64,000 bases of DNA, taken from positions 1,251,422-1,315,421 of the forward strand of contig OY970208.1 in assembly GCA_963713865.1 (NCBI GenBank), in the 5' to 3' direction. The notes under the pieces are model-generated. The model saw nothing but the letters and a program-made list of their open reading frames with translations, was not told the DNA's origin and ran no database searches. Source of the DNA: an uncultured candidate division Zixibacteria bacterium. Lineage in GTDB: Bacteria > Zixibacteria > MSB-5A5 > RBG-16-43-9. How positions within the stretch are numbered: the first letter of the stretch is position 1; each line of letters begins with the position of its first letter. Positions 3,911 through 52,958 of the stretch are shown here, in pieces. Both the position numbers and the translations under genes were made by a program.

Positions 3911-5161
3911 GTGGAAAATCTTTTAGGCAGAGTTGAAGCTTTTCTTTCTGAAAAAGAGATTGAGGTTTCCGATGAACTTGTGTTTCTGATAAATACCCGT
4001 ATAAAACCACCAGTTCCGGTCAATAAAGAAGATATCTATATCCGGGCGATGTATTTAGTCTCGGACCAGGTCAACTCTTTTGGCGGATGTTTCCCTCTGG
4101 ATGAACATCCTAAATTGGCAGAGCTGTTGGTTGATTCACCGGTATTAATTGGCCATTCTAAGGAAAAACTTCCTATTGCACGAAACTTCAAAGCAGATTT
4201 AGTCAAAAAAGATGAAGTTAACTGGGTTAAAGTTTATTTCTACTGGTTAAAAAATTCACCTGAAGCAGACTCTTTGAAAGTAAATATCGACCACGGGATT
4301 TATAAAGAGTGTTCAATCGGCTTTTCCTTTGAATTTCCAGAATGTTCCGTCTGTGGCGAAGATATGAGGAGATGCCAGCATATTCCTTTCCGTGCCTATG
4401 AAAAAGAAAATGGTGAGAAAACACAAGCTTTTTACAATTACCGTAATATCATCAAGGTGCATGAGACTTCTTTAGTTTACCGGGGTGCGGTTTTCGGAAC
4501 CTCGATGACGAACGAGCTTTACCTTTTTCAAAAGCACGATTGTGCAGATGGATTCTGTAAATTCAAAAGGGCATATAAAGAGTCGATTTTAGAATCCCTG
4601 AAAAAAGCCGGAATTGAAAAAGAGGTCAAACTGGTAGGGGATATAGAGGAGAAAGGATACTCTGATAATAAAATAGAGCTTTGCTGCGAAAATAACTTAG
4701 AGGAAAAGATTTTAAATTCTATCCCTCAAATTTTCAAGGACAGGATCTGTTTCGTAAGCGAAGAAAAAATAGAAAAGGATAAAACTCAGTCTGTGAGATT
4801 TATTTTATATCAAATACCACTTTCAGAGCAAAACCATCCGGAGGAAAACACAGTCGAGTGTAATTTAATATTTGAAGGAGCAGAGGTTACAACTGTTATT
4901 TGTATCCATCGATTGAATATGGAAAAACTTGAAAAGGGGAGAAGGTTTCTTTGTGACTTCAAGGATTTTTCTAAGATTATAAAGTCTGAATCAGGAGAGG
5001 TTTTGGACACAGGAGAATATCAGACTGCAGAGGGGAACAAAGAATTTTTCAGGTTTAAATTAGAGGGAGAGATTTTAAATGGGGTCTATTTTGCAAGAAA
5101 GATAAAGCTGAAGGATCAGGATAGATGGTTATTTTTCAAGAGGATGGCAGAACATATTTAA
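3911..5161 (+). CDS. phage prohead maturation protease-like protein with degenerate C-terminal accessory domains
   Basis: VLIGH...IAR...NIDHGIYKECSIGF...CSVCG...CQH...ETSLVYRGA resembles HK97-type prohead proteases with a Cys/His insert; GTG start after AAGGAG. Confidence 0.75.
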   Translation: MENLLGRVEAFLSEKEIEVSDELVFLINTRIKPPVPVNKEDIYIRAMYLVSDQVNSFGGCFPLDEHPKLAELLVDSPVLIGHSKEKLPIARNFKADLVKKDEVNWVKVYFYWLKNSPEADSLKVNIDHGIYKECSIGFSFEFPECSVCGEDMRRCQHIPFRAYEKENGEKTQAFYNYRNIIKVHETSLVYRGAVFGTSMTNELYLFQKHDCADGFCKFKRAYKESILESLKKAGIEKEVKLVGDIEEKGYSDNKIELCCENNLEEKILNSIPQIFKDRICFVSEEKIEKDKTQSVRFILYQIPLSEQNHPEENTVECNLIFEGAEVTTVICIHRLNMEKLEKGRRFLCDFKDFSKIIKSESGEVLDTGEYQTAEGNKEFFRFKLEGEILNGVYFARKIKLKDQDRWLFFKRMAEHI

Positions 5162-5322
5162 GAGTTTAAAGGTACAAGGATAAAGGACCTCACCCTCACC
5201 CTCTCCTAAAGAAGAATATGGATATAATAAATTAAAGATTAAAGATGAATAACCTCACTACCATATAAGAGATTAAGCGACTCTGAAAGGGTCGCACTAC
5301 GAAAACAAAAAAAGAATAAAAG

Positions 5323-5613
5323 ATGAGCGACAACAATAAAATTTTTTCAAAGGTTCAGCTGTTTCAATTTCTGATAACTTTCTTCGTTACTGTTTTCGGG
5401 GTTCTGACTGCTTATTATACTACCATCGCCGGGATCAAATTAGATTTAGCCCACAAGGCTGAAGTACAGATTGTAAATGAGCTGGATAAAAGACTTTCTA
5501 ATTTAGAGCTTTTGTTAAAAGAGAATTTTATGACCAAAAAGGAGTTCTTCGAGCTGAAGGATCAGATCAACCAGAGACTGCTTAAGATTGAAATGAGATT
5601 AGAAAATAAATAA
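5323..5613 (+). CDS. single-TM coiled-coil protein (phage membrane or holin-like)
   Basis: One N-terminal TM helix then a coiled coil; lies between protease and scaffold-like genes. Confidence 0.5.
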   Translation: MSDNNKIFSKVQLFQFLITFFVTVFGVLTAYYTTIAGIKLDLAHKAEVQIVNELDKRLSNLELLLKENFMTKKEFFELKDQINQRLLKIEMRLENK

Positions 5614-5785
5614 AGGTTTGAAAGTTACAGGGGAAAAAGAAAAGACGTGGCCGTGACTCGTATATCGTAACCGTAGGGAAAGAAGAAGATGGAAAAAGGG
5701 AATAGGGACAGGTATTAGTCTTAAGTCTAAAGTCCTAAAAAATCATAGATATAACAATTATGAAGAACTTAAAAAAGGAGCAAGA

Positions 5786-6202
5786 ATGGAGATATTAGTA
5801 CTGATTCAAAATTTAAAAGAACAAGCTGAGAGGATAAAAGAGTCCAGATTTGAGGAGATAGATTTTGACAGGCTGGAGCAAAACCTAAATCTGGCTTCGG
5901 AAATGTTGAGAAAAATGAAGGAAAAAGATAAAACCGCAGAAAATATCTTGGATGATTTTAAAACGGAGATAAAAAGGATTGCTCTTTCTCTCTCAAGGCT
6001 TAAAGGGGATAACTCAAATCTGGAGCTAATTGAGAAGTATCTCTCTGACCCGGATTTAGATTATGATGAACTCTGCCTTTTAAAAACAAAGCTTAAATCA
6101 GAATTCGATAAAAACCTCCCCAGCGCTCCACTGTCTAAGACCAGCTATAATTTTTTTAAAGAGAAGAAAGCGAAAGATAAAATCGAGGAGTTTAAGGTTT
6201 AA
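5786..6202 (+). CDS. coiled-coil protein, putative capsid scaffold
   Basis: All-helical and charged, Pro-containing tail ending IEEFKV; AAGGAG RBS; downstream of protease. Confidence 0.45.
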   Translation: MEILVLIQNLKEQAERIKESRFEEIDFDRLEQNLNLASEMLRKMKEKDKTAENILDDFKTEIKRIALSLSRLKGDNSNLELIEKYLSDPDLDYDELCLLKTKLKSEFDKNLPSAPLSKTSYNFFKEKKAKDKIEEFKV

Positions 6203-6421: not shown

Positions 6422-7258
6422 TTATTGTTTTAATGCTCCAGCTGTTAATCCGGAGATAATCTGGCGCTGGAAGAATAAGAATAAAATTATCACCGGAAGG
6501 GCGCAAAGGGAAGAGGCGGCCATCAGGTGTGGCCAATCGATAGTTTGATACCCCTGATATAAAGCAAGTGCTACAGGCAGGGTGCGCATCTTCTCAGATG
6601 AGGTCAAGATGAAAGGGAATAAAAAGGAATTCCAGTTAACCAGGAAAACCTGAACTGCTAAAACCGCAAGGGCTGGCTTGCACAATGGAAGAACGATTTT
6701 AAACAGTATTTTAAAATCGCCCGCCCCATCTATCCTGGCAGCATCTTCTAATTCCTTAGGTAAGTTTTGAATATATTGTCTCATTAAAAATATCCCCAGG
6801 GGATTAACCAGCCAGGGGATGATCAAAGCAAAATATGTATCATACCAGCTCAATTTTTTTATAAGGATGAATAACGGGACGATGATTATATGAGCCGGGA
6901 TCATCAAAACTAAAATCACAGACAGGAACAAAAAATTTTTCAGCACAAATTCCCTGCGGGCAAAAGCATACCCGACCATCAAACAGAAAATAATATTGCC
7001 GAGGGTAACAAGAATTGCGACGACCAAACTGTTGAGGAAAAATCTCAAAAAGGGTGCAGAGGACCAGACATCCTGATAGTTTTTCAGAGTCAGCTTTTCA
7101 GGCAGAAGGTCTCTGAAATTCAAGACATAACCGGTTTCTTTAGTCAAAGAGGTTTTGACCATCCAGTACATCGGGAAAAGCATCCCGGCTAAGATGAATA
7201 AAAGGATTAGAAATAAAAACCATCTTAATATTTTTTGTTTTGTTCTCATTTCGGACAC
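6422..7258 (-). CDS. carbohydrate ABC transporter permease (MalG-like)
   Basis: EAA loop LPKELEDAARIDGA; multiple TMs; likely ATG at 7249. Confidence 0.93.
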   Translation of the reverse strand: MSEMRTKQKILRWFLFLILLFILAGMLFPMYWMVKTSLTKETGYVLNFRDLLPEKLTLKNYQDVWSSAPFLRFFLNSLVVAILVTLGNIIFCLMVGYAFARREFVLKNFLFLSVILVLMIPAHIIIVPLFILIKKLSWYDTYFALIIPWLVNPLGIFLMRQYIQNLPKELEDAARIDGAGDFKILFKIVLPLCKPALAVLAVQVFLVNWNSFLFPFILTSSEKMRTLPVALALYQGYQTIDWPHLMAASSLCALPVIILFLFFQRQIISGLTAGALKQ

Positions 7259-7261
7259 CGA

Positions 7262-7356
7262 GTCATTGCGAGCCCGCCAAAGGCAAGGCGAAGCAATCCG
7301 TTAATTTATGTAGATTGCTTTGTCGTCCCGCCAAAGGCGGAACTCCTCGCAATGAC
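7262..7356. repeat. REP family B (~95-bp composite hairpin GTCATTGCGAG...GAAGCAATC...GATTGCTTCG...CTCGCAATGAC)
   Basis: Copies at 7262, 21133, 38407, 51814; degenerate or variant copies at 3806, 9700, 25620, 55546; half copy at ~37490. Confidence 0.88.
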
Positions 7357-7370
7357 ATATAAATAAAATA

Positions 7371-8243
7371 TTAATCCTCAATCCCTCTCCCCAGCCCAAA
7401 AGCTTTCATCTGTATTAAAGAGAAAATCATTATGATAATAAACAGACAATAGGCTATGGCTGAAGCATAGCCAAAGTTGAATTTATATAAACCCTGGTCG
7501 TATACTAAATAAACCAGGGTCAGAGTTGAGTTCAAAGGTCCTCCTTTGGTCATCACGAAGACCTCTATGAAGATCTGAAACGATTTAATGGTATTGATCA
7601 GGATAACAAACAGGAGCATCGGTTTTAGATGGGGCAGGGTTACGAATCTGAATTTCTGAAAAGGATTTGCTCCAAAGGTATCGGAGATCTCATACAGCTC
7701 TAATGGAACAGCCTGCAGTGCGGCTAAAAAGAGGAGCATATAATATCCAATGGAGACCCAGACATCCATAAGCATAATAGAAAGCAAGGCAGTTTTCTCG
7801 GAGAAAAGGAATCCTTTTTCCGGTGCAGGCAGGTTCAAAAGATTCAAAAGGAAATTGAAATACCCCTCTTTTGCATACAGATGTGTAAAAACCAGAGCTA
7901 TCACCACCAGGGAGGTTATGGAAGGAACAAAATATCCTGCGCGAAAAAATCCCCTCAAAGGTATTTTCTGGTTGACTAAAAGAGCCAGGAGCAAAGCGAG
8001 GATAGTGGTGAAAGGGATAGTCCCGAAAACGAAAAAGGAGGTGTTTTTTAAGGCGGTCCAGAAATCAGGATCATAAAGAAGCTTAAGATAATTGCTAAGC
8101 CCGAGCCATTCTGCTTTGCCGCTCAGAATCGAGTATTTCGTGAAACTCAGGATGAATGAATAGACCAGAGGGAAAAGCCAGAACAACAAGAGAATTATTA
8201 TCCAGGGAAGGAGGAAAATAAAGGTGGTTTTAGGTTTAGGCAT
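7371..8243 (-). CDS. sugar ABC transporter permease (MalF/UgpA-like)
   Basis: LQAVPLELYE..FGA...VTLPHLKP; TKGGP; FGYASAIA. Confidence 0.93.
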   Translation of the reverse strand: MPKPKTTFIFLLPWIIILLLFWLFPLVYSFILSFTKYSILSGKAEWLGLSNYLKLLYDPDFWTALKNTSFFVFGTIPFTTILALLLALLVNQKIPLRGFFRAGYFVPSITSLVVIALVFTHLYAKEGYFNFLLNLLNLPAPEKGFLFSEKTALLSIMLMDVWVSIGYYMLLFLAALQAVPLELYEISDTFGANPFQKFRFVTLPHLKPMLLFVILINTIKSFQIFIEVFVMTKGGPLNSTLTLVYLVYDQGLYKFNFGYASAIAYCLFIIIMIFSLIQMKAFGLGRGIED

Positions 8244-8353
8244 AGATAATTGTTTTTGTAGGGACAGATCAGCGATCTGTCCGTATAATTGAGAATAGGA
8301 CAGAACAATGTTCTGTCCCTACATTTTGCAACCCCGCTTCTGGCGGGATGGCA

Positions 8354-9580
8354 TTACTTTAGAATCTTATCTATCTCCACTTTTGCCTCATCTAATGCCT
8401 GAGAGGGTGTTTTTTTATCATACATCACCTGTTCAACTACCCTTTCGATTATCTCCTCGATATAAACCCATTGGGGAACAGCAGGTGAGGTTTGGGAATA
8501 TCTTAACTGTTCCTGAAAGACTAAAAGATTTTTGTTATTCTGATAATAGGGATCAAGTTCAGACCCTTTAGCTGAAGGGATGGCTGAGCCGATGGCTTTA
8601 CAAAGCTTTAAGGAATTTCCTTTTTTGATCAGATACTGGATGAATTTCTTAGCGGAGTCAGGATTTTTGCTTTTTTTGCTAATTACTAAGAACTCACCCC
8701 CGGCAAAGGAGGAGAAATTTCCTTTTTCTGGTTTAGGGATAAGGCAGACTCCAAATTTTAAATCCGGGAGATTTTTTTGGATATCGTTTAAAAGCCAGCC
8801 ACCTGAGATAACAAAGCCGATTTTCCCCTGTTTGAAATTTTCATCTAACATCCTTTGATTGTCAACAGTCCCCTGCTCAGTCAACTTTTTATAAAACGCC
8901 AAAGCTTCTTTGCCTGCAGGAGAATTTATCTCTGAACTCTGATGGTATGAAGATAAAATTTTACCACCATTTCCCCAGAAGAAGGGTAGGAACTTCTTAT
9001 ATAATCTGTGCCTCTCAGCGGAGTTTGCACCAAAACCGTAAGCTTCAGGTTTAAGTTGATTTATTTTCTGACAGTAGCTTAAAAGCTCCTTCCAGTTTAA
9101 AGGCGGTTTTTCAGGATCTAAGCCAGCTTTTTTCATCAGGTCTTTATTGTAAAATAAAACACGGGTATCCAGAAGCCAGGGGAAACCGTAGATTCTCCCT
9201 TTATAGAAAACAGGTTCCCACATCAGAAAATCTTGCTGAATTTTCTCTGCATCTGAAGTTACGTCCAGGAGGACATCCTGAGAGGAAAACTCCGGAACCC
9301 AGTCTGAACCTAACTCCAGAATATCCGGGGCTGTTCCAGAGGCGAATGCCACTACTATCTTTTCGTGACCTTCAGACCAGGTCAGATCAGTCAGATTTAT
9401 CTTTATTTCAGGATTTTCTTTTTCAAATTGATGAATTATTTCAATCAAGGCTGGCTTGACCTGCGGGTCGGTCCAGAACTGCCAGAAATCCAGAACGATT
9501 TTACCATTTTCCTGTTTAGAACAAGATAAAATCAAAAGAGATAATAAAGGAATCAAACAAATGAAAATTACTTTTCTCAA
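8354..9580 (-). CDS. sugar ABC transporter substrate-binding lipoprotein
   Basis: Lipobox ILSC; SGTAPDI, LFYNKDL and GGEFLVI motifs; TTG start 9580 after AGGAGG. Confidence 0.9.
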   Translation of the reverse strand: MRKVIFICLIPLLSLLILSCSKQENGKIVLDFWQFWTDPQVKPALIEIIHQFEKENPEIKINLTDLTWSEGHEKIVVAFASGTAPDILELGSDWVPEFSSQDVLLDVTSDAEKIQQDFLMWEPVFYKGRIYGFPWLLDTRVLFYNKDLMKKAGLDPEKPPLNWKELLSYCQKINQLKPEAYGFGANSAERHRLYKKFLPFFWGNGGKILSSYHQSSEINSPAGKEALAFYKKLTEQGTVDNQRMLDENFKQGKIGFVISGGWLLNDIQKNLPDLKFGVCLIPKPEKGNFSSFAGGEFLVISKKSKNPDSAKKFIQYLIKKGNSLKLCKAIGSAIPSAKGSELDPYYQNNKNLLVFQEQLRYSQTSPAVPQWVYIEEIIERVVEQVMYDKKTPSQALDEAKVEIDKILK

Positions 9581-9861
9581 GTTTCCTCCTCTAGGAGAGT
9601 AACGCAGACTAAAGTCTGCGACTACCAAGTTTTTCTCAGGTAATAAAGGTCTGAGGATAAGTTTGTCAAGGGTTAATCTTGTGGATAGTGCTGATTACTG
9701 TTATGCTGAGCGTAGCGAAGCATCTATGAGAAGAAAAACGAGATTCTTCCCCCGCCTTTGGGCGGGATTAGAATGACATAAATGAAATAGGGGCATCCGC
9801 CTTTGGCGAGACATCTCGCAATGACAGGTAAAGCTTGACAAATTCAGGTTTTGAATAGATA

Positions 9862-10791
9862 TTGTCGATAAATTATGGAAAAGAAAATGACTGGAATAAG
9901 AATTTGAGAAAAAAGGCAATTCTTTTTTTAACAATTTTAATACTTTCTTCATCTTTCATAGCTCGAGCGCAGGAAGAAGTTCAAAAAACTTTAGAATATC
10001 CTCCCCTGATAGGAAAGGATACAGTCTATCAGGTTGACAAAGGTGAGGGGTTGTATGAGATTGCCCGGAAGTTTGATGTCTCCTACATGTCTATAGCGCT
10101 GGCTAATCAGATTTCTGATCCTAACAGGATTTATGCAGGACAAAAACTGGTTCTTCCAACCAGGACGATTCTGCCTAAAAAGCTGGATAAGGGTATATTA
10201 ATAAACATTCCGGAATACAGGATTTACTTTTTCCAGGGGGAGGATTCAATCAAGGTCTACCCGGTATGCATTGGTCTTCCGACCTGGAGAACTCCTACAG
10301 GTGAATTTTCCATCACGCATAAAATAAAAAATCCTACCTGGTATATGCCCGATGCGATAGCGGAAAAGGAAAAAGTCAAAAAGGAGATAGTTCCTCCGGG
10401 ACCTCTTAATCCTTTAGGTGATTTCTGGATAGGGACTGATCTAAGGCACACTGGCATCCACAGCACTATTATTCCTATGTCTATAGGTCGAGCCTTGAGC
10501 CATGGGTGTGTCAGGCTCTATCCGGAGGATATAGAGGTGCTGTTCCCTCTAACAGAAGTGGGAATGACAGGGGAGGTAATCTATGAGCCGGTAAAATTAA
10601 CAGTCAGGGAAGATAGTCTTTTTTTAGAGGTCTATCCGGATGTATATGAGATGGTTCAAGATTATGAGAAAGAATTTAATAAAAAGCTGAGATGGTTGAA
10701 TCTATTAACGGATTTAGATAAAGATAAAATCAAGATCGTTCTGGAAGAGAAAAGGGGGATTCCAGTTTTTATCGGGAAAATATTTAGATGA
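9862..10791 (+). CDS. LysM-domain L,D-transpeptidase (YkuD/ErfK family)
   Basis: LysM (YQVDKGEGLYEIARKF), PPGPLNPLG, IH..SHGCVRL catalytic motif; true start probably TTG ~9904. Confidence 0.92.
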   Translation: MSINYGKENDWNKNLRKKAILFLTILILSSSFIARAQEEVQKTLEYPPLIGKDTVYQVDKGEGLYEIARKFDVSYMSIALANQISDPNRIYAGQKLVLPTRTILPKKLDKGILINIPEYRIYFFQGEDSIKVYPVCIGLPTWRTPTGEFSITHKIKNPTWYMPDAIAEKEKVKKEIVPPGPLNPLGDFWIGTDLRHTGIHSTIIPMSIGRALSHGCVRLYPEDIEVLFPLTEVGMTGEVIYEPVKLTVREDSLFLEVYPDVYEMVQDYEKEFNKKLRWLNLLTDLDKDKIKIVLEEKRGIPVFIGKIFR

Positions 10792-10863
10792 AAAAAAGTG
10801 GGGGTTCAAAATTTTGAACCCCTGCCATTTCATTTTAACATACTGCAAATGATGATTGTTTTC

Positions 10864-10887
10864 GTCGGGCATGAAGCCCGACGCTAC
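10864..10887. repeat. REP family D (GTCGGGC-N5-GCCCGACGCTAC)
   Basis: Copies at 10864, 11429, 18621, 30606; variants near 15497 and 16712. Confidence 0.8.
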
Positions 10888-10889
10888 GA

Positions 10890-11318
10890 TTATTCCTGAG
10901 GGAACCTTTTGTCCTCTTCCAGGGCGATGGTTAGAAGGCTGCGGGTGAATTCTATCTCCTGTTTGATCCGGGAAAGCTCGCCTTTCAAGTCGATTTCTTC
11001 TTCTTTCTGCTCCTGTACTTTCAAAAGTTTGGATTCAAAACGGGAAAGCCTCTGGTCGAAATTCTCCAGGACCTCCTTGAGCTCCAGGAACTCTTTCTTC
11101 AGGTCAAACAGGTCTTCTTTTATGGCTTTGCCAGAAGAATCCAGATTTTGCAGATTGCTTTTCAGCTCGGAGAGTTTTTCAGAGACTTTTTGCAGTTCTT
11201 TTTCCAGGGAGACTCCCACCCTTTCGATGGCTTCCCCTACCTCTTCGATGTCTCGTTTTTCCAAGCTCATCTCGTTTTCTTTACTCATATATTTTTTATA
11301 ATCTGGTGGAACAGACAT
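10890..11318 (-). CDS. coiled-coil hypothetical protein
   Basis: Heptad-rich ORF; the annotated 5' end overlaps a REP, so the true start is likely downstream. Confidence 0.6.
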   Translation of the reverse strand: MSVPPDYKKYMSKENEMSLEKRDIEEVGEAIERVGVSLEKELQKVSEKLSELKSNLQNLDSSGKAIKEDLFDLKKEFLELKEVLENFDQRLSRFESKLLKVQEQKEEEIDLKGELSRIKQEIEFTRSLLTIALEEDKRFPQE

Positions 11319-11525
11319 CTTGTCTGTTCTATCTTTTTTGTCAGGAATGTCTGACCTACCAATCTATTTCATTTTTCATCATCGGGTCAAAAATCCCGAC
11401 ATATACATTAATTTAGCTTCTTACCTTCGTCGGGCGTGAAGCCCGACGCTACTTTGGCTTCGTTAAGGACAGAATACTATTCTGTCCCTACAATTCCCAC
11501 CTTGAGGACAGGGTAGGTTGCCTGT

Positions 11526-12461
11526 TTAATAGATCTCTAATTGTGTAGAACCCAGTTTATCCGGGAGCATATTTTGAATTGCAGTTTTCAAGATATGCTT
11601 TGCCTCCGCAAATCTCCTTCGATTGGAGGAGGCGCCCAGGACTATTACGCAGAGTTTTTCCTCCACATTTTTTAGCATAACTGCCAGGCACCAGCCGGAT
11701 TTACCTATGAAGCCGGTCTTTCCACCCAGGATATCAAAATCTTCCCTGAGCAGACGGTTGCTGTTGCCCAGCTGATGAAACCTTTTTCTTTTGTTCACCG
11801 AGTAAAAATTATATTGCTTAGTAGTGGTAATCTGTGAGATGAGTGGGTCAGTTAAAGCCATCTTCAGAAGTTTTGCAGTTTCCCAGGCAGTTGAGACGTT
11901 GTCCGCATTGAGTCCGGTTGGATCAGCAAACTCTGTATTTTTCAGGCCTAAGGAGTCAGCTTTCTCGTTCATTCTTTCCACAAACTCTCCATCTCTCATT
12001 CCGGTAGCTCTCACTAAAGCTCGTGTAGCCCGGTTATCTGAGGACATTAAGCTTGAATGTAAAAGATCGATTAGATAAAAAGTCTCTCCCGGACGCAGGC
12101 GGGATTTAGCAGAGGCTCTGGCATCATCCCGGGTAATACTGATGGTATCGAAAAGGTCAACTCCTGATTCCAAGAATACCATTGCGGTCATCAATTTGGT
12201 CAAGCTGGCGATGGAGCGAACATCTTCACTGTTCATATCGTAAAGCACGGTCTCGTTATCCAGGTCCAGAACCAGTGCTGATTTGGCAGTCAGCTTGAAC
12301 TCTTTTTTCTTTTTGTAAGAGGTTTTTTTCACGGTTTTACCGAATGCGGGACTGGCAGAGGAAAAGGAAAATCCGCAAATAAGGATGAGACTCAGAAGAT
12401 ATATCCCCCACTTATCCAGAATAGATTCAATCGGACTTTTCCAGTCTCTAAAATTTCGCAT
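11526..12461 (-). CDS. D-alanyl-D-alanine endo/carboxypeptidase, peptidase S11 (PBP7-like)
   Basis: SxxK (SLTK), SxN (SDN) and KTG motifs; signal peptide. Confidence 0.9.
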   Translation of the reverse strand: MRNFRDWKSPIESILDKWGIYLLSLILICGFSFSSASPAFGKTVKKTSYKKKKEFKLTAKSALVLDLDNETVLYDMNSEDVRSIASLTKLMTAMVFLESGVDLFDTISITRDDARASAKSRLRPGETFYLIDLLHSSLMSSDNRATRALVRATGMRDGEFVERMNEKADSLGLKNTEFADPTGLNADNVSTAWETAKLLKMALTDPLISQITTTKQYNFYSVNKRKRFHQLGNSNRLLREDFDILGGKTGFIGKSGWCLAVMLKNVEEKLCVIVLGASSNRRRFAEAKHILKTAIQNMLPDKLGSTQLEIY

Positions 12462-17438: not shown

Positions 17439-17442
17439 CTCC

Positions 17443-44021: not shown

Positions 44022-45566
44022 TCAGCAACTTGGTGGGGGGCCACCTTTGAAAAGATAGTTGATTAAAAAGACTACATCGGAGATTGAGGGTTTTCCATCG
44101 TAGTTGCAGTCAGCAGAGATAAGAGGATCTGGAGGTGCTCCTCCTTTGAAAAGATAGTTTATAAGATAAACGACATCAGCGATAGAGACTTTTCCATCCT
44201 GATTTACATCTCCACGATAAAAAACAATATGATTATATTTAATGGTTACATAATCAAATTTTGTTTCACTCTGGTAGCTTTGACCAGTTACAAAAACGTT
44301 ACCTGAATTGTCTACTGCTATAGCAGTGGGTTTATCATCTTCTCCTCCATTATATCTATTTAACCATAGGAGGTTGCCTGCTGGATCATATTTCAGAGTG
44401 GCGAAATCAAAATCTGTTCCGTTGCCAAAACTTCCACCGGTGACATAGACATTGCACGAATCATCTATGGCTATGGCTGTAGCCTCGTCATTGCCATTTC
44501 CAGGTCCGTTATATCTTCTCACCCAGAGCTGGTTTCCACCTGGATCATACTTTATAGTGGCATAGTCAAAATAGGTTGAGCTGTCGTAACTTTTTCCGGT
44601 TAGATAGATATTACCAAACCGGTCCAGGGCTAAATCGGTTGCCTGGTCTTCAGAGTTGCTTGTTCCATTATATCTTCTCACCCAGGCCGTATCTCCATCA
44701 GGATAATATTTCAGGGTAACGTAATCGTTATCCATGAAGTTATCATAACTTGTTCCGGTAACAAAGATATTTCCAGAACCGTCTACCGCAATGGCACAGG
44801 CATCGTCGTCTGAATTCCCTGAACCATTATATCTTCTGAGCCAGGCGGTATCGCCGTTCGGGTAATATTTTATGGTGGCATAATCAAAGCCATTATCTCT
44901 GCTGGAGCTTAATCCCGTTAAGCAGAGATTACCCCAAGGATCAATACTTAAGTCTTTGGGATGGTCATAACCGTTTCCAGGTCCGTTGTATCTTCTTAAC
45001 CAGGCTGTTTCACCATCAGGATAATATTTAAAAGTAGCATAGTCATCAAAAGTAACAAGATCCCAGCTATGTCCGGTTACATAGATATTCCCTGAAGAAT
45101 CAACGGTTATGGCGGTTGCAGCATCATCGTGGTTTGTTACCGGACCAGGGTATCTTCTTACCCAGGTGGTCTCTCCATCTGGCTGATATTTTATGGTGGT
45201 ATAGTCAAAGTTATAGAATGTGCCTATTCCCACACTCCAGCCAGTTACATATAAATTTCCTGATTTGTCCAGAGCTAAGGCAGTTGCCCCGTCATCGTAA
45301 TTTCCTGTGCCATTATATCGTTTTAGCCAGGCAAGTTCTCCATCCGAGTAATATTTCAGAGTAGCATAATCATATCCTGTGTTGTAGCTAAAGCTCTGAC
45401 CGGTAACATAGACATTTCCAGAATCGTCTAAAGTCAGGGCTGAAGGAAAATCATTAAGGTCTGCTGATCCGTTGTATCTTTTAACCCAGATAGTGTCGAC
45501 TTCCTGGCAAAGGAGAATTAGAGGTATATTGAGAAGCAAAAAAAGAGCTAAGAGAAATTTTCTCAT
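44022..45566 (-). CDS. SBBP beta-propeller repeat protein with dockerin-like C-terminus
   Basis: Signal peptide, repeated SBBP units, paired dockerin-like repeats; paralog of 40000-41550. Confidence 0.85.
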   Translation of the reverse strand: MRKFLLALFLLLNIPLILLCQEVDTIWVKRYNGSADLNDFPSALTLDDSGNVYVTGQSFSYNTGYDYATLKYYSDGELAWLKRYNGTGNYDDGATALALDKSGNLYVTGWSVGIGTFYNFDYTTIKYQPDGETTWVRRYPGPVTNHDDAATAITVDSSGNIYVTGHSWDLVTFDDYATFKYYPDGETAWLRRYNGPGNGYDHPKDLSIDPWGNLCLTGLSSSRDNGFDYATIKYYPNGDTAWLRRYNGSGNSDDDACAIAVDGSGNIFVTGTSYDNFMDNDYVTLKYYPDGDTAWVRRYNGTSNSEDQATDLALDRFGNIYLTGKSYDSSTYFDYATIKYDPGGNQLWVRRYNGPGNGNDEATAIAIDDSCNVYVTGGSFGNGTDFDFATLKYDPAGNLLWLNRYNGGEDDKPTAIAVDNSGNVFVTGQSYQSETKFDYVTIKYNHIVFYRGDVNQDGKVSIADVVYLINYLFKGGAPPDPLISADCNYDGKPSISDVVFLINYLFKGGPPPSC

Positions 45567-46084: not shown

Positions 46085-46921
46085 ATGAGTTTTACTAACA
46101 TCTCTTTAGTTAAAAAGCATATCTCCGAGCATCGTCTGGGGATTTCTGAGATGGAAAACCATCCCTGTCATCTTTCGGGGGATTCTCCAGTTAAGCTTCC
46201 GGATTCTAATGTCCAGGTTGGCTCAGAGAAGATTAAAGGTAAGGAGATTTTATCTCCGGTTCAGGAGGGGGTAAGTTTTTTATCCGGGGACACAATTCAG
46301 CTTTTACATTCGGAGTTGATTTTAGATACAGTGGTCGTTACCTCAGACTCATCCTTAGGGAAAATCTACGTGGAGAATATCGATTATTCGATAGATTATG
46401 AGAATGGAAAATTGACCCGGATTTCAAGCGGCTCAATTTCAGCTCTGTCTTCAGTGGTTATTTTTTACCTCTATTACCGGGTTTATCAAAAAGATATAGA
46501 TTACAAACTCGATTTTCAGAAAGGTGAGCTTACCCGAATTGCCAGCGGAGCGATAGAGGATGGGCAATGGGTTCTTTTAGATTACAAGGTGGAATACGGG
46601 TTTTTAAATGATGAAACTATTGCCCAGGCGATGGCGGAGGCAAATGAGAGGATTTTGAAATTCATCGACCCTTCTTATTATGAATCTGAAGATCAAGGAC
46701 TGGTTATTGCAGAGACCTGTCTTTCAGTATCAATCCTCTGTGACATTAAGGCCGTTGAGGTTCTAAATTTCAATATCTATGGAGCCAATGCCCAGCTTTT
46801 ATCCAGGTCCTGGAATACGATGGCTGAGGTTTACTCCAAAAAGGCATATCTAATCCTGAGCAATTTTGCCAAGCCGGGTTCTTCACTGATTGCACCTAAA
46901 GCGGTAAAAAGTGAAAATTAA
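46085..46921 (+). CDS. putative head-tail adaptor with duplicated inserted beta domain
   Basis: Helical N- and C-termini (TNISLVKKHI; LNDETIAQAMAEANERI) flank two Y....DY..D...G.LTRI.SG.I repeats. Confidence 0.5.
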   Translation: MSFTNISLVKKHISEHRLGISEMENHPCHLSGDSPVKLPDSNVQVGSEKIKGKEILSPVQEGVSFLSGDTIQLLHSELILDTVVVTSDSSLGKIYVENIDYSIDYENGKLTRISSGSISALSSVVIFYLYYRVYQKDIDYKLDFQKGELTRIASGAIEDGQWVLLDYKVEYGFLNDETIAQAMAEANERILKFIDPSYYESEDQGLVIAETCLSVSILCDIKAVEVLNFNIYGANAQLLSRSWNTMAEVYSKKAYLILSNFAKPGSSLIAPKAVKSEN

Positions 46922-47502: not shown

Positions 47503-47772
47503 ATGAGAAATAAAATAAATAAAAAGCAAAAAAAGAATAGGCAGAATTTTTCTGAATCGGAAAATCACAGTGAAGAAAAATTTTTAGAGGAGCTGATCTC
47601 CTGTGTTTTGAAAAAGCTGAAATCCGGGAAATATCAGGTGAAAGTGGCAGATGCTATCCGGGCTATAGAGCTAAAGCAGAAGATAAGATCAAAAGAGCCA
47701 AAGAAAAGTAAAGAAAAAATATTCTGGGAATTGATTGATCAAATAAGGAAAGAGGAGCTGCCGAAGGAATGA
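47503..47772 (+). CDS. small basic helical hypothetical protein
   Basis: 89-aa Lys/Glu-rich ORF; stop overlaps the next start (ATGA). Confidence 0.55.
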   Translation: MRNKINKKQKKNRQNFSESENHSEEKFLEELISCVLKKLKSGKYQVKVADAIRAIELKQKIRSKEPKKSKEKIFWELIDQIRKEELPKE

Positions 47773-49823
47773 AAAACAGTAGACAGCATATAGTAGGCAG
47801 TAGGCAGGGAAAGAAAGCAAACAGTAGACAGCATGCAGTCCGTCTGAGGCGAAGTATACGGTGGATAATATTTCTGATTTTTCCCCTATATGCTGTCTAT
47901 TGTTTACTGTCTACTTCTTATGCGGAGATAAACAACACCTTAGCTTATTCGGTTTCTCATACCCAATCGACTACCGCTAACCGTCTTGGTCTGGTGAGTG
48001 AAATTACGATCGCACAGACTATCCTAGCAACTACAGATGAGACCTGGTATGGGATTGTAGTTTATTTAGACCGGAATGGTTTTTCTTCCTCTACCGATTC
48101 GGTTAAGTTGAGGTTCAGAGAGAATGCAGTAGAATTTTGTAGCACGCCTGATACGAGTGCAGTTCCCAAACGGGATGTTTATGTCAAGGTTACAGATATT
48201 CCAGATGGCGATGCTACAAATAATACAATACCGCCGGATAGCGTTGCCAGGGGATATGCTATCTGGTTTATTTTCAATACTCCCGTTAGTGTATCTGCGG
48301 GGGTTTGCTACAATATCTTCTTAAATGGCCCCTATACAGATGCAAACAATCGGATAAACTGGTTTTACGGGACTAACGGTTATGTCAATGGTTCTTGTTG
48401 GTATCAGACCACTGGTTCCTGGACGAATTATAACTCTGATTTGGACTTCAGGGTAATTAAAGATAAATATGCTCTGATTGCAGTAAGAAGACTACCTTTT
48501 AATACGCGAGGCATATTGACTATTAATTCAGATATAGATAATTCGACAGTTGATTATCTGGATTCACTACATAAATGGCTCAATACCAGCCAGAATGTAG
48601 GTGGTTCCTGGGGAACTGGATTGAATGGTCAAATAGCAGGAAACGAAGTCTGGTTTGGAAGAGGCTCTTTAGCTGATTCTTTAGGGGTTTATTCTAAGGA
48701 AGTTCCTTTCTATTTTCACGGATTAGATACGACCTCAAATTTTTACAAAGATTCATTGGATAACTATATCTCACGCCGTTGGGCAGATGGTAACCATTCC
48801 TATGGTGATTGCGGCTGGGACGGGGCTGATCCCACTTGTATGGATTCTACTCACGTTAAGAAATTTTTAAACTATATGCTTAATCGCCCTTCTACTTTTG
48901 GCAAATTATATAAAGGTGGACTTTTTGTAAATCACGGCTCACAAAAGATAAATTTCGGAACTGCAGGTGATGTTAATTTTTTGGGCGATTCCTCTGGCAC
49001 GATTTATTATCACGCTAATAAGACTTGTGCTTCAGGTAGGTTTAAATTTATATGGAATTCTAATCTTACTGATCCGGGCACTTCTTTATCTCAAAGATTG
49101 TCTTATGATGATTGGCAGAATCAACTGGATTCGCTCAATATCACTGCTATACCTTTGTATGATCGCACTTTTAGAGATGGCACTAAATATTATGAATATA
49201 AAAGGGTAGGCAGATCTGCGGCAGCCAGGCCTGATTCTTTATATAAATTTTTCAACCAAACTGTCGCTAAAAAATGTTCTGATTCTAACTGGATTTCTGT
49301 AATCCATTGTCATCTGGGATATGAGGACGGATTAGACCAAGATGATAGAGATACTATAAAAGCAGTTTTCGATTCAGCATCAGCCTGGGATTTATGGATA
49401 CCATCTACCAAAGCACTTTTCAATCAGCAGGCGGCTTCTGCTTTTGCTCAGATTATAATTGATAGACCCACTGGCTCTAAGAGAAGAATAAATATAAAAA
49501 GTCTTTATGATTGGAGCTGGGGCTCACATGTGCCGGACAGGGAAGAGGTTTCTTATCTGACTTTTATAGCTTACGCACCTGAAAGTTTAATGATTACCAT
49601 CAACGGTTCAGCAGATACCCTATCTGATAGTATTATGGTAAATCAACAAGATGTTCCTACGGGTTATATAGCATCAGGTGACCGACTAAGGGCTATGTCC
49701 TGGGTGGGGATGTATAATCGGACTGCAGGCAGATTAGTAATATTGCCTTCAGAAGCACCATCTGCAGGACAAAAGAGAAATAGGGCAGCAGTTATAAAAC
49801 AACTTCTGGAGGATAATAAATGA
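47769..49823 (+). CDS. large secreted protein, possible polysaccharide deacetylase-like domain
   Basis: Signal peptide; TINSDID...NHSYGD...NHG...HCHLG possible metal-binding pattern. Confidence 0.5.
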   Translation: MKNSRQHIVGSRQGKKANSRQHAVRLRRSIRWIIFLIFPLYAVYCLLSTSYAEINNTLAYSVSHTQSTTANRLGLVSEITIAQTILATTDETWYGIVVYLDRNGFSSSTDSVKLRFRENAVEFCSTPDTSAVPKRDVYVKVTDIPDGDATNNTIPPDSVARGYAIWFIFNTPVSVSAGVCYNIFLNGPYTDANNRINWFYGTNGYVNGSCWYQTTGSWTNYNSDLDFRVIKDKYALIAVRRLPFNTRGILTINSDIDNSTVDYLDSLHKWLNTSQNVGGSWGTGLNGQIAGNEVWFGRGSLADSLGVYSKEVPFYFHGLDTTSNFYKDSLDNYISRRWADGNHSYGDCGWDGADPTCMDSTHVKKFLNYMLNRPSTFGKLYKGGLFVNHGSQKINFGTAGDVNFLGDSSGTIYYHANKTCASGRFKFIWNSNLTDPGTSLSQRLSYDDWQNQLDSLNITAIPLYDRTFRDGTKYYEYKRVGRSAAARPDSLYKFFNQTVAKKCSDSNWISVIHCHLGYEDGLDQDDRDTIKAVFDSASAWDLWIPSTKALFNQQAASAFAQIIIDRPTGSKRRINIKSLYDWSWGSHVPDREEVSYLTFIAYAPESLMITINGSADTLSDSIMVNQQDVPTGYIASGDRLRAMSWVGMYNRTAGRLVILPSEAPSAGQKRNRAAVIKQLLEDNK

Positions 49824-51803
49824 AAAAGATTAGGCTCATAATACTGATTTCGATTTTAATTCCATGCTGGTATTTTAATAGTATAGGATTTTACGGAACA
49901 TTCTACGATGGCACAGGTGCCAGGGATACTGTCTGGATGAATGTTGCCACTTTCGATACTTTAGGTCAGCAAACAAATGCGGATTCAGTTTGGTTTATTC
50001 GTCATTACAGGACTACAGCAATTGATACTGTGATTATGAGTACAGCTACTGCGGGGACTGGATACTATATTACTGGTAAAAGAGCTTTTGATGGCACTAA
50101 TTATGGTGATTATACGGTCAGGATTAGGTGGAAAAGCCAGACTAAATATTTTGGCAAAACTGAAAGCTATACTGTGTTCCCCAGCGATACTTCAAATATT
50201 AAAACGATGCTGACTAATAATTCTTTTGCCCAGATTGGCACGGATAAAATCTGGAGATTGAGAGGGCTGGCAATTAGAGGAACATCTGGAGATGATACCG
50301 CTTTTATAGCTCAAGGCTATGGCTACGGTATGGGTGTATTAGCAGGGGGTGGGTCAACTGGAGCAGATGGCTTCTATGCTTTAGGTGGTGGAACTGGTGC
50401 AGGGTTTCATTCAGTTGGTGGCTCTGGCGATGGAGCAGAAGGTATTTTTGCCGAAGGAACAGGGTTCTGGTCCGGGCATATATGGTCTTGGTGGAAACTC
50501 TGGTAGTGGATTACAGGTTATTGGTCAAGGTTCAGCTTCAGGAATAAGGGCTGATGGCGGATCAAGTGGTAATGGTATTACAGTAACAGGTTTTAGTTCA
50601 GGTTCTGGGATAAGAGCAGTAAAAGGTTCAACTGGATATGATATTTATGGTAATATACAAGGCAATCTATTGGGCTCAGTGAACTCAGTAACATCTGGAG
50701 TTACGGTTTCGACTAATAATGATAAAACCGATTATCAATTAGCGTCCGGGCAGGTTATTTCCAGGGCGGATTCGGTTACAGGCGTAGGGAGAATATCGTC
50801 AAATCTGGATAAAACTAACTATTCTCTAAATTCCAATTATCTAACTAAAGCGGATTCAGGTTCTACAGGTACAAGTTATCTGCGGGCAAAATATATCGAG
50901 GACAAAATCGGGTACCGACTATCGGCTCAAGGTCAGGCAGATATATGGATAAATGATACTACCGGTGAAAATTCAGGCTGGGCTGGATTTTTTAAAGGTA
51001 GATTGGATGCCGATGTTTCATCGAGATTTGCTCCTGGTGATTCAGGGATTATAGCCAGAGTTCCCTGGGATAACGATTTGATTGCTCAAGCTCAAAGGAG
51101 AATAAGATATGTTGATAGTTTAGGAGAAGAGTTATCAGGTGGTGGAAGTGCAGCTAATCCGGACACTATAGCTAATCATGTCTGGATCTGGGATAGCAGG
51201 ACTTTAACCTCAGGAGCAGGGGCTGGTACTAATCAGGTTGTCATAACCACAAAACAAAGCTCTGATTCAACTCCGATCGCCAGTGTTCAGATGCAGGTTT
51301 TAAATTATGAGCAGACCGCAACAGCCGGACTATTAACCACTAATCCATCTGGACAGGCAACTTTTGCTTTAGATAATGCTATTTACAAAGTGCGGATGTT
51401 TAAACCGGGCTGGCAATTTACTGTTCCAGAAAGTTTAGTTGTTTCCGGAAATAGTTCTGCAACTTTCTATGCATCAGTTTTTGATCCTGGTTTACCACCC
51501 TCAGCTGAGCTTTGTCGGGTTTATGGCTGGATTAAAGACCTTAAGGGCTTGCCAGTAGTTGGAGCGGTTATCGATGCTAAGATCGTATCAACTCCCTTAA
51601 GGTATCAATCGGTTTTAATCAGCCCTTATTATAGAACTACAAACACCGATAGCGAGGGATACTGGTATTTGGACCTGTATCCTAATTCTAAATTGAGCCC
51701 CTCCAGTACCCAGTATGATTTTACTATCTATATCCCTTACGGTACAATCCTAAAGTTAAAGAACACTGTTCCGGAACAGAGTAGCTGGGAATTAGGATGG
51801 TGA
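49820..51803 (+). CDS. Gly-rich fibre-like secreted or structural protein, +1 frameshift at ~50465
   Basis: Signal peptide, G.G.G..A.G repeats, C-terminal beta-sandwich-like domains (CRVYGWI, TDSEGYWYLDL); two track ORFs join. Confidence 0.55.
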
Positions 51804-51923
51804 TTCTTAAGATGTCATTGCGAGTCCGCCAAAGGCGAGACGAAGCAATCCGTTTAATAACTCATTGAGGAGATTGCTTCGTTGTCCCCGTAGGGGGACT
51901 TCTCGCAATGATATGATAAATGT

Positions 51924-52466
51924 ATGAGGATCTTTTTCTGGAGGGTCAAAGGGTATAGAAATATCTGGAGATTTAAAATTATGTGCTGGACAGTTTATAA
52001 AGACTTGAGAATGGATCCATTGAATCCAATTTCTGTTAAGACAAAGATTACTTCAGAGGAGGTGGATGCTTATCTCGTCTCCACTCCTCTCCGGGGAATA
52101 GGAAATGATTTAGTGCGGGTGGCTTCTAAGAACAAGGTTAATCCAATCTATATATTGGCTCATATTATACACGAAACCGGCTGGGGAGAATCAAAGATCT
52201 TTCTAGAAAAGAATAACCTATTCGGGTTTGGAGCTTGTGATAAAAACCCTTTAGCTCTGGCGATTAGTTTTGGTTCGGTCAAAGAATGTCTGGAAAAAGT
52301 GGTCAAATATATTGCCAGAGAGTATTTGAATGAAGGTGGAAAATTCTATGCTGGTTCAAATCTAATTGGGATGAACCGCCATTATGCCAAAGATAAGTCC
52401 TGGTGTTTTAAGATTACGGCTCTGATGAATCAGATCGAGGATTTTCTTTTTGAAAGAAGAAATTAA
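51924..52466 (+). CDS. GH73 glucosaminidase (endolysin-like)
   Basis: AHIIHETGWG, KNNLFG, YAKDKSW; no signal peptide; true start possibly 51981. Confidence 0.82.
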   Translation: MRIFFWRVKGYRNIWRFKIMCWTVYKDLRMDPLNPISVKTKITSEEVDAYLVSTPLRGIGNDLVRVASKNKVNPIYILAHIIHETGWGESKIFLEKNNLFGFGACDKNPLALAISFGSVKECLEKVVKYIAREYLNEGGKFYAGSNLIGMNRHYAKDKSWCFKITALMNQIEDFLFERRN

Positions 52467-52595
52467 AAAGTTAGATGCGAGAAAGGAGACAAGAAATTGG
52501 ATCGTAGTGCGGCCCTGCACCAGACGGTGCAAAGTCGCCAAATATAAAGGACAGAACAATGTTCTGTCCCTACAAATTATTTTACAGGAGGTGTT

Positions 52596-52958
52596 ATGCT
52601 AAATTTACCTAACCTCGCCACGGGCTACTGGCAACTGTTTTTTATCCCTCTCTCTATCTTCTCAACCGTGAGCGGCTGGATCTTATCCGGAGTCGGGACT
52701 TTAATCACCCTGATCGTTGCCTGGCTGGCCAAGGAATATCTTGTTCCTTATCTTTCCACCGAGAGGAAGAGGAAAATGGCAAGCTACATCCTTTTGATCG
52801 CCGATGAGGTAACGGATTATTTTCGGCTGAAATATCCGGAGGTTAAATGGACCGAGTGGCTGAATCAGGCGATTGATAAAATTATCGAGATCACTGGTAC
52901 TACAAAAGAAGTGGCTTCAAGAGCGGCACAGGCGGCCATAGCCAGGAAAATCAAATAA
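52596..52958 (+). CDS. holin-like membrane protein
   Basis: N-terminal TM segment(s) then amphipathic helices; next to the lysin; AGGAGG RBS. Confidence 0.55.
   Translation: MLNLPNLATGYWQLFFIPLSIFSTVSGWILSGVGTLITLIVAWLAKEYLVPYLSTERKRKMASYILLIADEVTDYFRLKYPEVKWTEWLNQAIDKIIEITGTTKEVASRAAQAAIARKIK

Follow-up and report, generated by a model that had tools for sequence, protein, structure and literature searches.

Three independently exapted groups of gene transfer agents (GTAs) are recognised in PMC9662315, and no more than a handful of independently domesticated GTAs has been described, nearly all studied in Alphaproteobacteria (PMC12946183, PMC9662315), with very few known outside that group according to PMC12946183. 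Here, we analysed a 64-kb stretch of DNA (the window, G000:C1:1251422-1315421) from the single-contig, 2.72-Mb genome G000 of Candidatus Zixiibacteriota, which carries genes of a tailed-phage-type head, among them one for a major capsid protein (MCP); the two congeners of this genome are G001 and G002. We consider it fairly probable that these genes belong to a host-owned structural and packaging gene set that is GTA-like, derived from a tailed phage, anciently domesticated and vertically inherited. Its product is probably a host-owned particle resembling a GTA rather than a prophage.

The closest described analogue in architecture is FpGTA of Faecalibacterium. PMC12946183 presents it as a GTA-like, genus-level element, proposed to be podovirus-like, whose two operons lie about 125 kb apart and encode a large terminase (TerL), portal, scaffold, MCP, short-tail-type proteins, holin and endolysin, and which was shown experimentally to package about 8.5-9 kb of DNA. 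As so described, FpGTA resembles the Zixibacterial element in being GTA-like outside the Alphaproteobacteria, and the G000 genes likewise span about 125 kb; the Zixibacterial element differs in being phylum-wide, contiguous in most lineages and, also in comparison with the RcGTA-type agents (Rhodogtaviriformidae), a putative agent. Compared with RcGTA, it resides in another host phylum and apparently stems from another phage ancestor, its MCP belonging to Phage_capsid_4 and its TerL to Terminase_6N. Furthermore, it includes no recognised siphovirus-type tail tube or tape measure, has a propeller-type lectin-like gene beside the MCP gene, and reaches a prevalence of 95% among genomes of high quality (at least 90% complete) across the whole phylum.

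The Zixibacterial set also shares traits with three other kinds of system. In phage lambda the decoration gene (D) directly precedes the MCP gene (E), and HK97-family prohead proteases carry an invariant catalytic His and Ser. The Zixibacterial decoration gene likewise stands directly before the MCP gene, its putative protease has an invariant His and Ser, and the same kinds of genes follow nearly the same order as in the lambda and HK97 head modules. In contrast to those modules, however, the portal gene precedes the TerL gene, a small membrane protein is encoded inside the head module, the element is not mobile, and its own MCP, protease and portal (like its decoration, adaptor and fibre genes) reach no significant Pfam family. 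With encapsulins the set has in common a shell protein that is cell-owned, vertically inherited and, judging from its family, of the HK97 fold class, but the shell gene of this set is inherited together with those for portal, terminase, protease, decoration protein and adaptor. Capsid-forming phage-inducible chromosomal islands (cf-PICIs) are small chromosomal islands with head, packaging and connector genes and no recognisable tail; they are mobile and carry integrase and replication genes. The Zixibacterial cluster is similarly small and chromosomal, with head, packaging and connector genes and no recognisable tail, whereas it has no integrase or replication gene in the open reading frames (ORFs) scanned and is vertically inherited in about 95% of high-quality genomes.

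Loci of up to 20 kb around the MCP gene were collected from 54 other genomes of 16 host families. All 54 were collinear, mostly with one match per genome, which bears out the expectation of a first-pass annotation of the window that orthologues would keep the same order across relatives. Genes are referred to below by product or by their first position in the window (Table 1). The shared order runs from portal, TerL, protease, a small protein with a transmembrane (TM) helix and coiled coil and, in some loci, a scaffold-like protein to the decoration protein and MCP, and continues with propeller, adaptor, 47000, 47503, a variable slot of about 2 kb, a fibre-like protein and a terminal TM protein. 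Decoration, MCP, propeller and adaptor genes were present in all 54 loci, the protease in 53 and the 47000 homologue in 52; TerL was seen in 39 and the portal in 37, counts bounded by the 20-kb limit. In the 23 loci with both ends in view, the span from portal to terminal TM protein was 12.5-18.1 kb (median 13.8 kb), and in 15 relatives the ORFs of this span were largely accounted for, the variable slot aside, several of them having no family match. The ancestral state is thus a single cluster of about 13-14 kb, and the scattered layout is derived and specific to the family of G000.

In G000, insertions of about 73 kb and 31.6 kb of host DNA, together with three antisense genes, have spread the cluster genes over about 125 kb; they retain the original order on one strand. 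The first-pass annotation had called the module exploded but collinear, which is accurate for this genome; since the relatives keep one compact cluster, the layout is a derived one. It had also recognised neither portal nor terminase, correctly for the window, but the genome has both: surrounded by cellular genes about 73 kb upstream of 3911, they keep the strand of the set and the expected order. The gap between the scaffold-like and decoration genes (6202 to 37858, 31,655 bp) does consist of cellular genes according to Pfam. The protease segment of G003 has been inverted and is 21 kb away from the MCP gene, and in both G007 and G003 the portal-TerL pair points away from the protease; G001, like G000, has a p35947 homologue directly upstream of the MCP gene. 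The layout of 44024-53000 is reproduced by a 14-kb contig from a sister strain, and that of 37800-53000 piecewise by independent contigs. Given this repetition and the single contig of the genome, an assembly chimera, raised earlier as a possible refutation, was rejected.

Concerning the surroundings of the cluster, a PEP-CTERM protein and a TPR protein recur as upstream neighbours across four families, and the flanks in relatives hold PEP-CTERM, TPR, CDP-alcohol transferase, dockerin and methyltransferase genes. Ten ORFs scanned in short flanks from six relatives were all cellular and included no integrase or replication family. Neither replication, integration nor lysogeny genes were thus found in the ORFs scanned. 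The signature of a prophage is missing as well: no integrase, repressor or replication family occurred in the scanned ORFs (att sites were not searched for), and the occurrence of the MCP gene in 189 of 198 high-quality genomes is not patchy.

A pattern scan using one genome per species returned 238 MCP-encoding stretches; nearly all of the best 80 came from Candidatus Zixiibacteriota, and the others from metagenome-assembled genomes (MAGs) with generic or apparently mistaken labels. Among 41 relatives, the MCP gene was detected in 36 (24 of the 25 high-quality ones) and the protease gene in 38. An MCP profile matched 255 of 285 genomes of the phylum, including the 189 high-quality genomes mentioned above, and 118 of 130 genera, mostly once per genome; G000 itself has one copy. 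The patchiness named earlier as a ground for refutation was therefore not seen. MCP identity falls with taxonomic distance: genomes of the genus share 95-97%, those of the family 83-86%, those of the order 71-80% and those of the class 59-65%. The MCP tree covered 62 genomes (no row was dropped) of 16 host families. Its host labels required 15 changes, the lowest number possible; shuffling gave a mean of 45.9, and none of 200 shuffles was as low; all 13 host families with several members formed one group each, and the three families of the order of G000 grouped together. The TerL tree (40 of 41 loci, those with a long enough match) and the portal tree (38 of 41 loci) likewise required the minimum numbers of changes, 13 and 12, against shuffled means of 28.3 and 26.5. 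The MCP tree, which was to be compared with a ribosomal-protein tree, thus agrees with the host family codes used in its place. With label changes of 15, 13 and 12 and identity tracking rank, these data point to co-divergence with the host, and by this sequence evidence the gene set is inherited vertically from the common ancestor of the sampled Zixibacteria.

Selection was assessed by the Nei-Gojobori method against the two congeneric genomes (dS 0.36-0.79). The dN/dS ratio was 0.036-0.040 for the MCP, 0.037-0.052 for the TM protein 5323, 0.077 for the decoration protein, 0.12-0.14 for the protease and 0.23-0.26 for the scaffold-like protein, the fastest-evolving member. At the family level, where dS is saturated, the adaptor, 47000, 47503 and 47769 gave 0.07-0.14, with 47769 at 0.067 against G007. 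Ratios well below 1, which had been proposed as a check, were thus obtained throughout (0.036-0.26 against the congeners), denoting purifying selection in the host. At the dS separating the congeners, such ratios mean that selection acted during the divergence of these genomes.

The head genes could be assigned with differing degrees of confidence. All ORFs that the first-pass annotation assigned to the gene set were found on the + strand where it had placed them. Its MCP label is upheld by the PHROG match (Table 1) and by the orthologue P0094, which matches Phage_capsid_4 (2.5e-7); from this family membership, an HK97-class fold may be inferred. Profiles of the MCP and the protease gave no match to PDB sequences. 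The decoration gene lies beside the MCP gene in all 54 loci, and its matches in PHROG are weak. For 3911, labelled prohead protease-like, tblastn returned phage genes whose annotations read 'head maturation protease' (2e-5) and 'major head and protease protein' (6e-8). Its N-terminal protease-like domain (residues about 1-210), which matches phrog_16951 (2.3e-18; function unknown), is followed by a middle region and a conserved C-terminal end (about 363-414); H82, S135 and a C145/C148/C155/H157 cluster are invariant in 13 orthologues, and no Pfam match was returned even at E<=10. The length of this gene varies from about 244 to about 790 aa across lineages; in two families of the same order (f2, f4), an extra 300-400 residues separate the protease domain from the C-terminal end of about 50 residues, and the latter matches across order-level relatives. 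The TM/coiled-coil gene 5323 was detected in 45 of the 54 loci, always on the MCP strand, and homologues of the scaffold-like 5786 were found by tblastn in nine, all from close lineages.

Regarding packaging, relatives have two conserved genes directly upstream of the protease gene, one of which matches Terminase_6N (4.7e-14). In 19 TerL sequences including that of G000, the segments G87-S93 and D194, E195, which we take to be Walker A and Walker B, and the presumed nuclease aspartates D322, D375, D381 and D454 are invariant. The adaptor-like gene 46085 yielded a model (predicted local distance difference test, pLDDT, 88.4) with an N-terminal helix and a C-terminal three-helix bundle. In a wide VIA-align search its helices aligned with phage head-tail adaptors and neck proteins (phiCD508 neck, 9.1; T4 gp13/14, 9.1; P74-26 neck, 8.9; Pa223, 8.8; JBD30, 8.4; SU10, 8.4; HK97 gp6, 8.0 over 89 of 96 residues; an RcGTA virion chain, 7.6), and the beta domain inserted in it is also found in tail and receptor-binding proteins of phages. 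The adaptor fold emerged only with VIA-align: the top Foldseek match in PDB was a phi812 baseplate chain (TMq 0.28), and a profile search against PDB sequences gave chance-level matches only. Protein-atlas look-ups of cluster proteins returned for the most part the Zixibacterial clusters of the queries themselves and, beyond these, leads below 0.9 to families of connectors and adaptors. On its predicted fold, 46085 is a gp6-like head-tail adaptor of the Phage_connect_1 type, in line with the earlier label.

The small proteins after the adaptor are less readily assigned. The 47000 protein gave no Pfam or PHROG match; from its position, we guess that it is a neck or connector component. For 47503, family matches were weak (phrog_1007, 4.8e-4). 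In L131, L132 and L160 (families f11, f18), its homologue does not follow the adaptor but stands between portal and TerL; the vicinity of these two genes is the usual place of a small terminase gene, and 47503 is a weak candidate for a small-terminase-like factor. Tail tube, tape measure and small terminase were not recognised among the cluster ORFs in the family scans run, which is not proof of their absence.

Downstream of the MCP gene, the 42018-42689 ORF had been taken for a whole gene but makes up only the 5' portion of one encoding 473 aa, which a one-base frameshift near 42652-42654 interrupts; the ORFs at 42018 and 42634 correspond to one gene of 469-500 aa in 27 of 27 relatives. Similarly, the ORFs 49820-50506 and 50385-51803 both match a single 621-aa ORF of G013, with the frame change falling between 50407 and 50526. 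The C-terminal half of this fibre-like protein occurs in 46 of the 54 loci, whereas a homologue of 47769, in the variable slot, occurs in one (G007); neither protein gave a family match. The GH73 lysin called at 51924 was confirmed by Pfam (Table 1). It adjoins the 52596 homologue in four of five same-family genomes searched and is absent from all 54 loci, two same-family loci ending short of its position; the lysin is a family-specific addition to the cluster. The terminal membrane protein 52596, without a family match, has homologues in 30 of the 54 loci, always last and on the MCP strand. The labels fibre-like (47769-51803), scaffold-like (5786) and holin-like (52596) proposed earlier are drawn from position and composition only.

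Table 1. Features of the gene set and of the window. Positions refer to the window, except for the portal and TerL genes, which lie outside it and are given on the genome contig.
Feature	Position	Strand	Basis or remark
Portal	G000:C1:1179216-1180532	+	PHROG phrog_3753, 5.7e-36
Large terminase (TerL)	G000:C1:1180696-1182147	+	phrog_2, 2.8e-27
Prohead (head-maturation) protease-like gene	3911..5161	+	phrog_16951; tblastn to annotated phage proteases
Small protein, N-terminal membrane helix and coiled coil	5323..5613	+	Translation; conserved, in the protease/decoration interval
Coiled-coil, scaffold-like protein	5786..6202	+	Position and composition only
Cellular gene block, not part of the system	6422..37269		Separates protease segment from capsid segment; Pfam
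Decoration-like/virion structural protein	37858..38277	+	phrog_4588 'virion structural protein', 2.5e-6; phrog_122 'head decoration', 0.024
REP-like palindromic element, decoration gene/MCP interval	38408..38484		Inverted repeats I1-I3, direct repeat D12
Major capsid protein (MCP)	38668..39789	+	PHROG 3922 'major head protein', 1.4e-59
SBBP beta-propeller and dockerin gene, insertion	40000..41256	-	Pfam SBBP 3.5e-36, Dockerin_1 1.2e-11
Beta-propeller (lectin-/sialidase-like) with C-terminal beta-sandwich	42018..43443	+	473 aa, frame split here
Cold-shock-protein-like ORF, insertion	43584..43802	-	Translation judged by eye
Second SBBP and dockerin paralogue, insertion	44022..45566	-	Pfam SBBP 1.5e-38, Dockerin_1 5.3e-12
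Head-to-tail adaptor, gp6-like helical core with inserted beta domain	46085..46921	+	Predicted fold
Conserved small protein, about 114-124 aa	47000..47344	+	52/54 loci, always beside adaptor
Small protein, basic N-terminus, helical-looking by eye	47503..47772	+	30/54 loci
Lineage-specific 684-aa protein, hydrophobic N-terminus	47769..49823	+	Variable slot of about 2 kb
Fibre-like protein, Gly-rich N-terminal repeats and conserved C-terminal half	49820..51803	+	Split near 50465
GH73 N-acetylglucosaminidase, endolysin-like	51924..52466	+	Pfam Glucosaminidase 1.6e-15; PHROG endolysin 6.1e-18
Small membrane protein ending the cluster, holin-like	52596..52958	+	Position and hydrophobic N-terminus only

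Taken together, the set contains the particle genes of a tailed phage (MCP, portal, TerL, protease, decoration-like protein and adaptor), tail parts being recognised only as far as the adaptor. Conservation of the TerL motor, the portal and the adaptor speaks for a particle that packages DNA rather than for a purely proteinaceous compartment. Prevalence of 95%, single copy, tree congruence, low dN/dS and the lack of mobility or replication families in the ORFs scanned fit neither an active nor a decaying prophage. Moreover, since the G000 genes are spread over about 125 kb, far beyond the expected capacity of an ordinary phage head, its particle would carry host DNA. The earlier view of a non-excising, vertically inherited particle system is thus supported by synteny, trees, dN/dS and the absence of an integrase from the scanned ORFs. 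Of its two options, a GTA-like or a tail-less capsid system, the first agrees with these results; with portal, TerL and neck adaptor present, the system lacks neither terminase nor portal nor neck, and its particle is possibly short-tailed.

According to the model that we propose, the structural and packaging genes of a tailed phage would have entered the common ancestor of the sampled Zixibacteria, formed the single collinear cluster of about 13-14 kb and been inherited vertically from then on. In the family of G000, cellular genes would later have been inserted, segments rearranged, and the GH73 lysin gene added beside that of the terminal membrane protein. The genes would build a procapsid matured by the protease, TerL would pump DNA through the portal, and through a short neck or tail, built on the adaptor and bearing lectin and fibre proteins, the particle would bind other cells. 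Particles would be released by cell lysis, that of G000 carrying host DNA in the manner of a GTA (viriform). A more far-reaching version, in which we place somewhat less than even confidence, holds that Zixibacteria have their own independently domesticated GTA, as old as the sampled phylum and retained in about 95% of its high-quality genomes, with a possibly short-tailed particle bearing a lectin-like propeller and variable fibres and with genes that stay functional though scattered over 125 kb, and that it may share a Phage_capsid_4 head lineage with GTA-like elements of gut Clostridia.

Several observations weigh against a functional, host-owned GTA-like system. No particle, packaged DNA, transcript or protein of it has been observed, and no RNA run was listed for 37800-47799. 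The MCP gene was not found in 30 of 285 genomes, including nine of the 198 high-quality ones (e.g. G107, G123, G159), and the host family codes, a taxonomy independent of these genes, resolve less than a species tree would. The set has no recognised small terminase, tail tube, nozzle or regulator, nor, outside this family, a lysin, and six cluster proteins have neither a family nor a fold assignment. A propeller is also a generic fold, for which lectins and glycosidases scored far above the single phage tail match. As to gene integrity, most core ORFs are intact, as had been reported; the exceptions in the G000 assembly are the frameshifted propeller (42652-42654) and fibre-like (50465) genes. 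The propeller frame also changes elsewhere in G001 and G002, and the decoration gene was not found, with this query, in G001 (98% complete). Finally, a one-base deletion at 39317 (codon 217) disrupts the MCP frame in three runs of one study, uncompensated in the same contig; it does not occur in the run of the other study.

Some of these lesions can be followed further. Contigs of sister strains over 37800-53000 (four runs from two studies) lack the extra base at 42652 in all four runs and that at 50465 in three of four, so that the two breaks are assembly errors or very recent. The frame of the propeller gene changes at a different place in each of the three genomes of the genus (about 460 in L002, about 3718-3725 in L003, 42652-42654 in the window), and the gene is intact in other genera and in the sister strains of G000; these changes could reflect relaxed selection in the genus or MAG assembly errors. 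In L003 (G001), the decoration gene is missing from 985-1531, between the upstream host gene and the MCP gene.

Relatives of the MCP outside the phylum are few in phage collections. Among 50,697 phage records, only five matched, all labelled 'UNVERIFIED Bacteriophage sp.' and from human faeces, at 31-33% identity. At least two of them are pieces of bacterial chromosomes: MT835508 and MT835769 were considered as sources of phage neighbours and rejected, both being bacterial chromosomal contigs; the nearest MCP relatives outside the phylum (33% identity) are thus on chromosomal contigs of gut bacteria. MT835508.1 (L120) carries a ribosomal-protein operon 45-70% identical to that of G000 beside a compact run of ORFs at 20800-27700. 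In the ORF run of these contigs, a protease and an MCP match the window (MCP, 33%), and neighbouring ORFs are TerL- and portal-like by size and order only. The Phage_capsid_4 family of the MT835508-type MCP has at least 7,994 members, the named ones belonging to Ruminococcaceae, Oscillospiraceae and other Clostridia. The MT835508 and MT835769 elements may be GTA-like, of the kind reported in PMC12946183. IMG/VR contained eight MCP relatives, one of which is a fragment of the cluster and the rest 27-32% identical, with the order portal-protease-MCP in L176, L177 and L179. The fragment (L172, IMGVR_UViG_3300027896_005586), an 11-kb 'viral genome' already counted as a virus, encodes dockerin, portal, TerL, protease, TM protein, decoration protein, MCP and propeller. 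Among the 120 matches listed, all MCP homologues were unnamed or 'hypothetical protein'. A literature search, with subscription journals outside its coverage, found no published GTA of Zixibacteria, mentions of capsids or prophages appearing incidental, and, among the papers listed, nothing relevant on Zixibacteria or Zixiibacteriota in combination with encapsulin, HK97 or terminase.

Of the competing explanations, the one that survives best accepts domestication and assigns the particle another job, such as packaging of a specific locus, use of the tails of infecting phages in the manner of cf-PICIs, release of DNA for biofilm or nutrients, or killing or adhesion by means of the lectin and fibre proteins. 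All the evidence for domestication applies to it equally, near-universal retention (189 of 198 high-quality genomes) suggests that the cell gains much from it, and the family scans recognised no tail tube, sheath, tape measure or nozzle. However, the conserved adaptor, lectin-like and fibre-like proteins suggest an adsorption device of its own, neither a pac or cos signal nor a specific cargo was identified, and the ten flank ORFs scanned lack the integrase and replication families that define mobile islands. We regard such an alternative role as unlikely.

A cryptic prophage remnant in decay, devoid of current function at least in this genus and with its conservation elsewhere a legacy of past use, would be consistent with the scattered layout and with the lesions described above, namely the two frameshifts in G000, the independent ones in the propeller genes of G001 and G002, the decoration gene not found in G001 and the MCP deletion in one population. 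Nevertheless, it appears very improbable in view of dN/dS values of 0.04-0.26 at dS 0.36-0.79 between congeners. Moreover, G001 shares the insertion upstream of the MCP gene, the portal is full length in both G001 and G002, the TerL motifs are intact, and the G000 frameshifts are absent in the sister strains.

An encapsulin-type nanocompartment, in which an HK97-fold shell would enclose a protein cargo (for instance the middle part of the protease, recruited via its conserved C-terminal end), could account for a conserved, single-copy, vertically inherited HK97-type shell protein, for the variable length of a protease that retains its C-terminal end, and for the failure to recognise tail proteins. 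To our knowledge, though, encapsulin systems comprise no portal, terminase or head-tail adaptor, and an encapsulin would be expected as a shell alone, whereas portal, TerL and protease are conserved here together with the MCP. Portal and TerL, the latter with invariant ATPase and nuclease motifs, occur in all families sampled, the adaptor is co-inherited with them, and Pfam returned no encapsulin-family match for the MCP. We hold this explanation to be very improbable.

Lastly, an active temperate phage lineage co-diverging with its hosts, or a prophage joined to host DNA by misassembly, is barely credible: homology to phage head genes and the viral classification of the cluster fragment L172 in IMG/VR would favour the former, but the cluster measures only 12.5-18 kb, no integrase, repressor or replication family occurred in the cluster and flank ORFs scanned, 95% of high-quality genomes carry it, mostly as one match, host families are recovered in three gene trees and the upstream chromosomal neighbours recur across four families, while the single 2.72-Mb contig and the piecewise reproduction of 37800-53000 speak against a chimera.

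With regard to the remainder of the window, the 31.6-kb block includes, according to Pfam, ABC permeases with a binding protein, YkuD, Peptidase_S11 (D-Ala-D-Ala carboxypeptidase), DUF1611, HARE-HTH, beta-helix with dockerin, NurA, SIR2_2, HerA, two PmbA/TldD and DUF5916/CBM9. The NurA (25739-26560), SIR2-like (27564-28724) and HerA-type ATPase (28774-30339) genes lie in the lowest-GC part of the window (0.335-0.364), and 25739-30339 looks like an anti-phage defence island inside the insert. At the end of the window is a 16S-tRNA-tRNA-23S operon, in whose spacer a 222-aa ORF (60430-61098) occupies the tRNA-Ile/tRNA-Ala stretch of about 800 bp; it could be an inserted gene or a chance ORF.

Three antisense host genes had been reported in the later part of the gene set. 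Pfam identifies two of them as SBBP/dockerin paralogues; the third presumably encodes a cold-shock protein, as judged by eye from its translation. MCP and propeller genes are adjacent in the other 53 loci, without an SBBP gene between them. Dockerin-bearing or SBBP surface-protein genes (about 700-750 aa) adjoin the end of the cluster on the opposite strand in three families (f10, f14, f16), and, as in the window, the clusters of G003 and G067 have SBBP genes within or next to them; their proximity may reflect a recurrent insertion hotspot or a functional link. The repetitive extragenic palindromic (REP) elements noted between core genes were also found, as REP-like palindromes in the decoration gene/MCP interval and, as a related copy, at 51823-51911. 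Purine-rich CTAAAG-type heptad leaders at 37594-37752, 38280-38567, 41937-42014, 46005-46054 and 46942-46993 precede the decoration, MCP, propeller, adaptor and 47000 genes. A cluster-specific regulatory role for them was rejected, because the same leader also occurs before SBBP genes and housekeeping-looking ORFs (by eye, presumably riboflavin-synthesis-like and NusB-like) and is absent upstream of portal, TerL and protease; it is a leader of host type.

If the interpretation of a domesticated GTA-like particle is correct, the MCP, protease, scaffold and decoration proteins are targets for heterologous assembly, and there is a clear prediction for the sequencing of encapsidated DNA. It also carries a warning, as virus-prediction pipelines and phage databases already label fragments of this element and a related chromosomal cluster as viruses. 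The scattered family of G000 would represent a natural experiment in how far such a system tolerates being pulled apart, and a Phage_capsid_4 lineage shared with elements of gut Clostridia, if real, would suggest that GTA heads outside the Proteobacteria form an ancient, widespread class. For the Zixibacteria themselves, a phage-derived packaging particle would be conserved across an entire uncultivated phylum, constituting a new case of virus-to-host exaptation and a possible route by which genes move through communities of sediment and soil.

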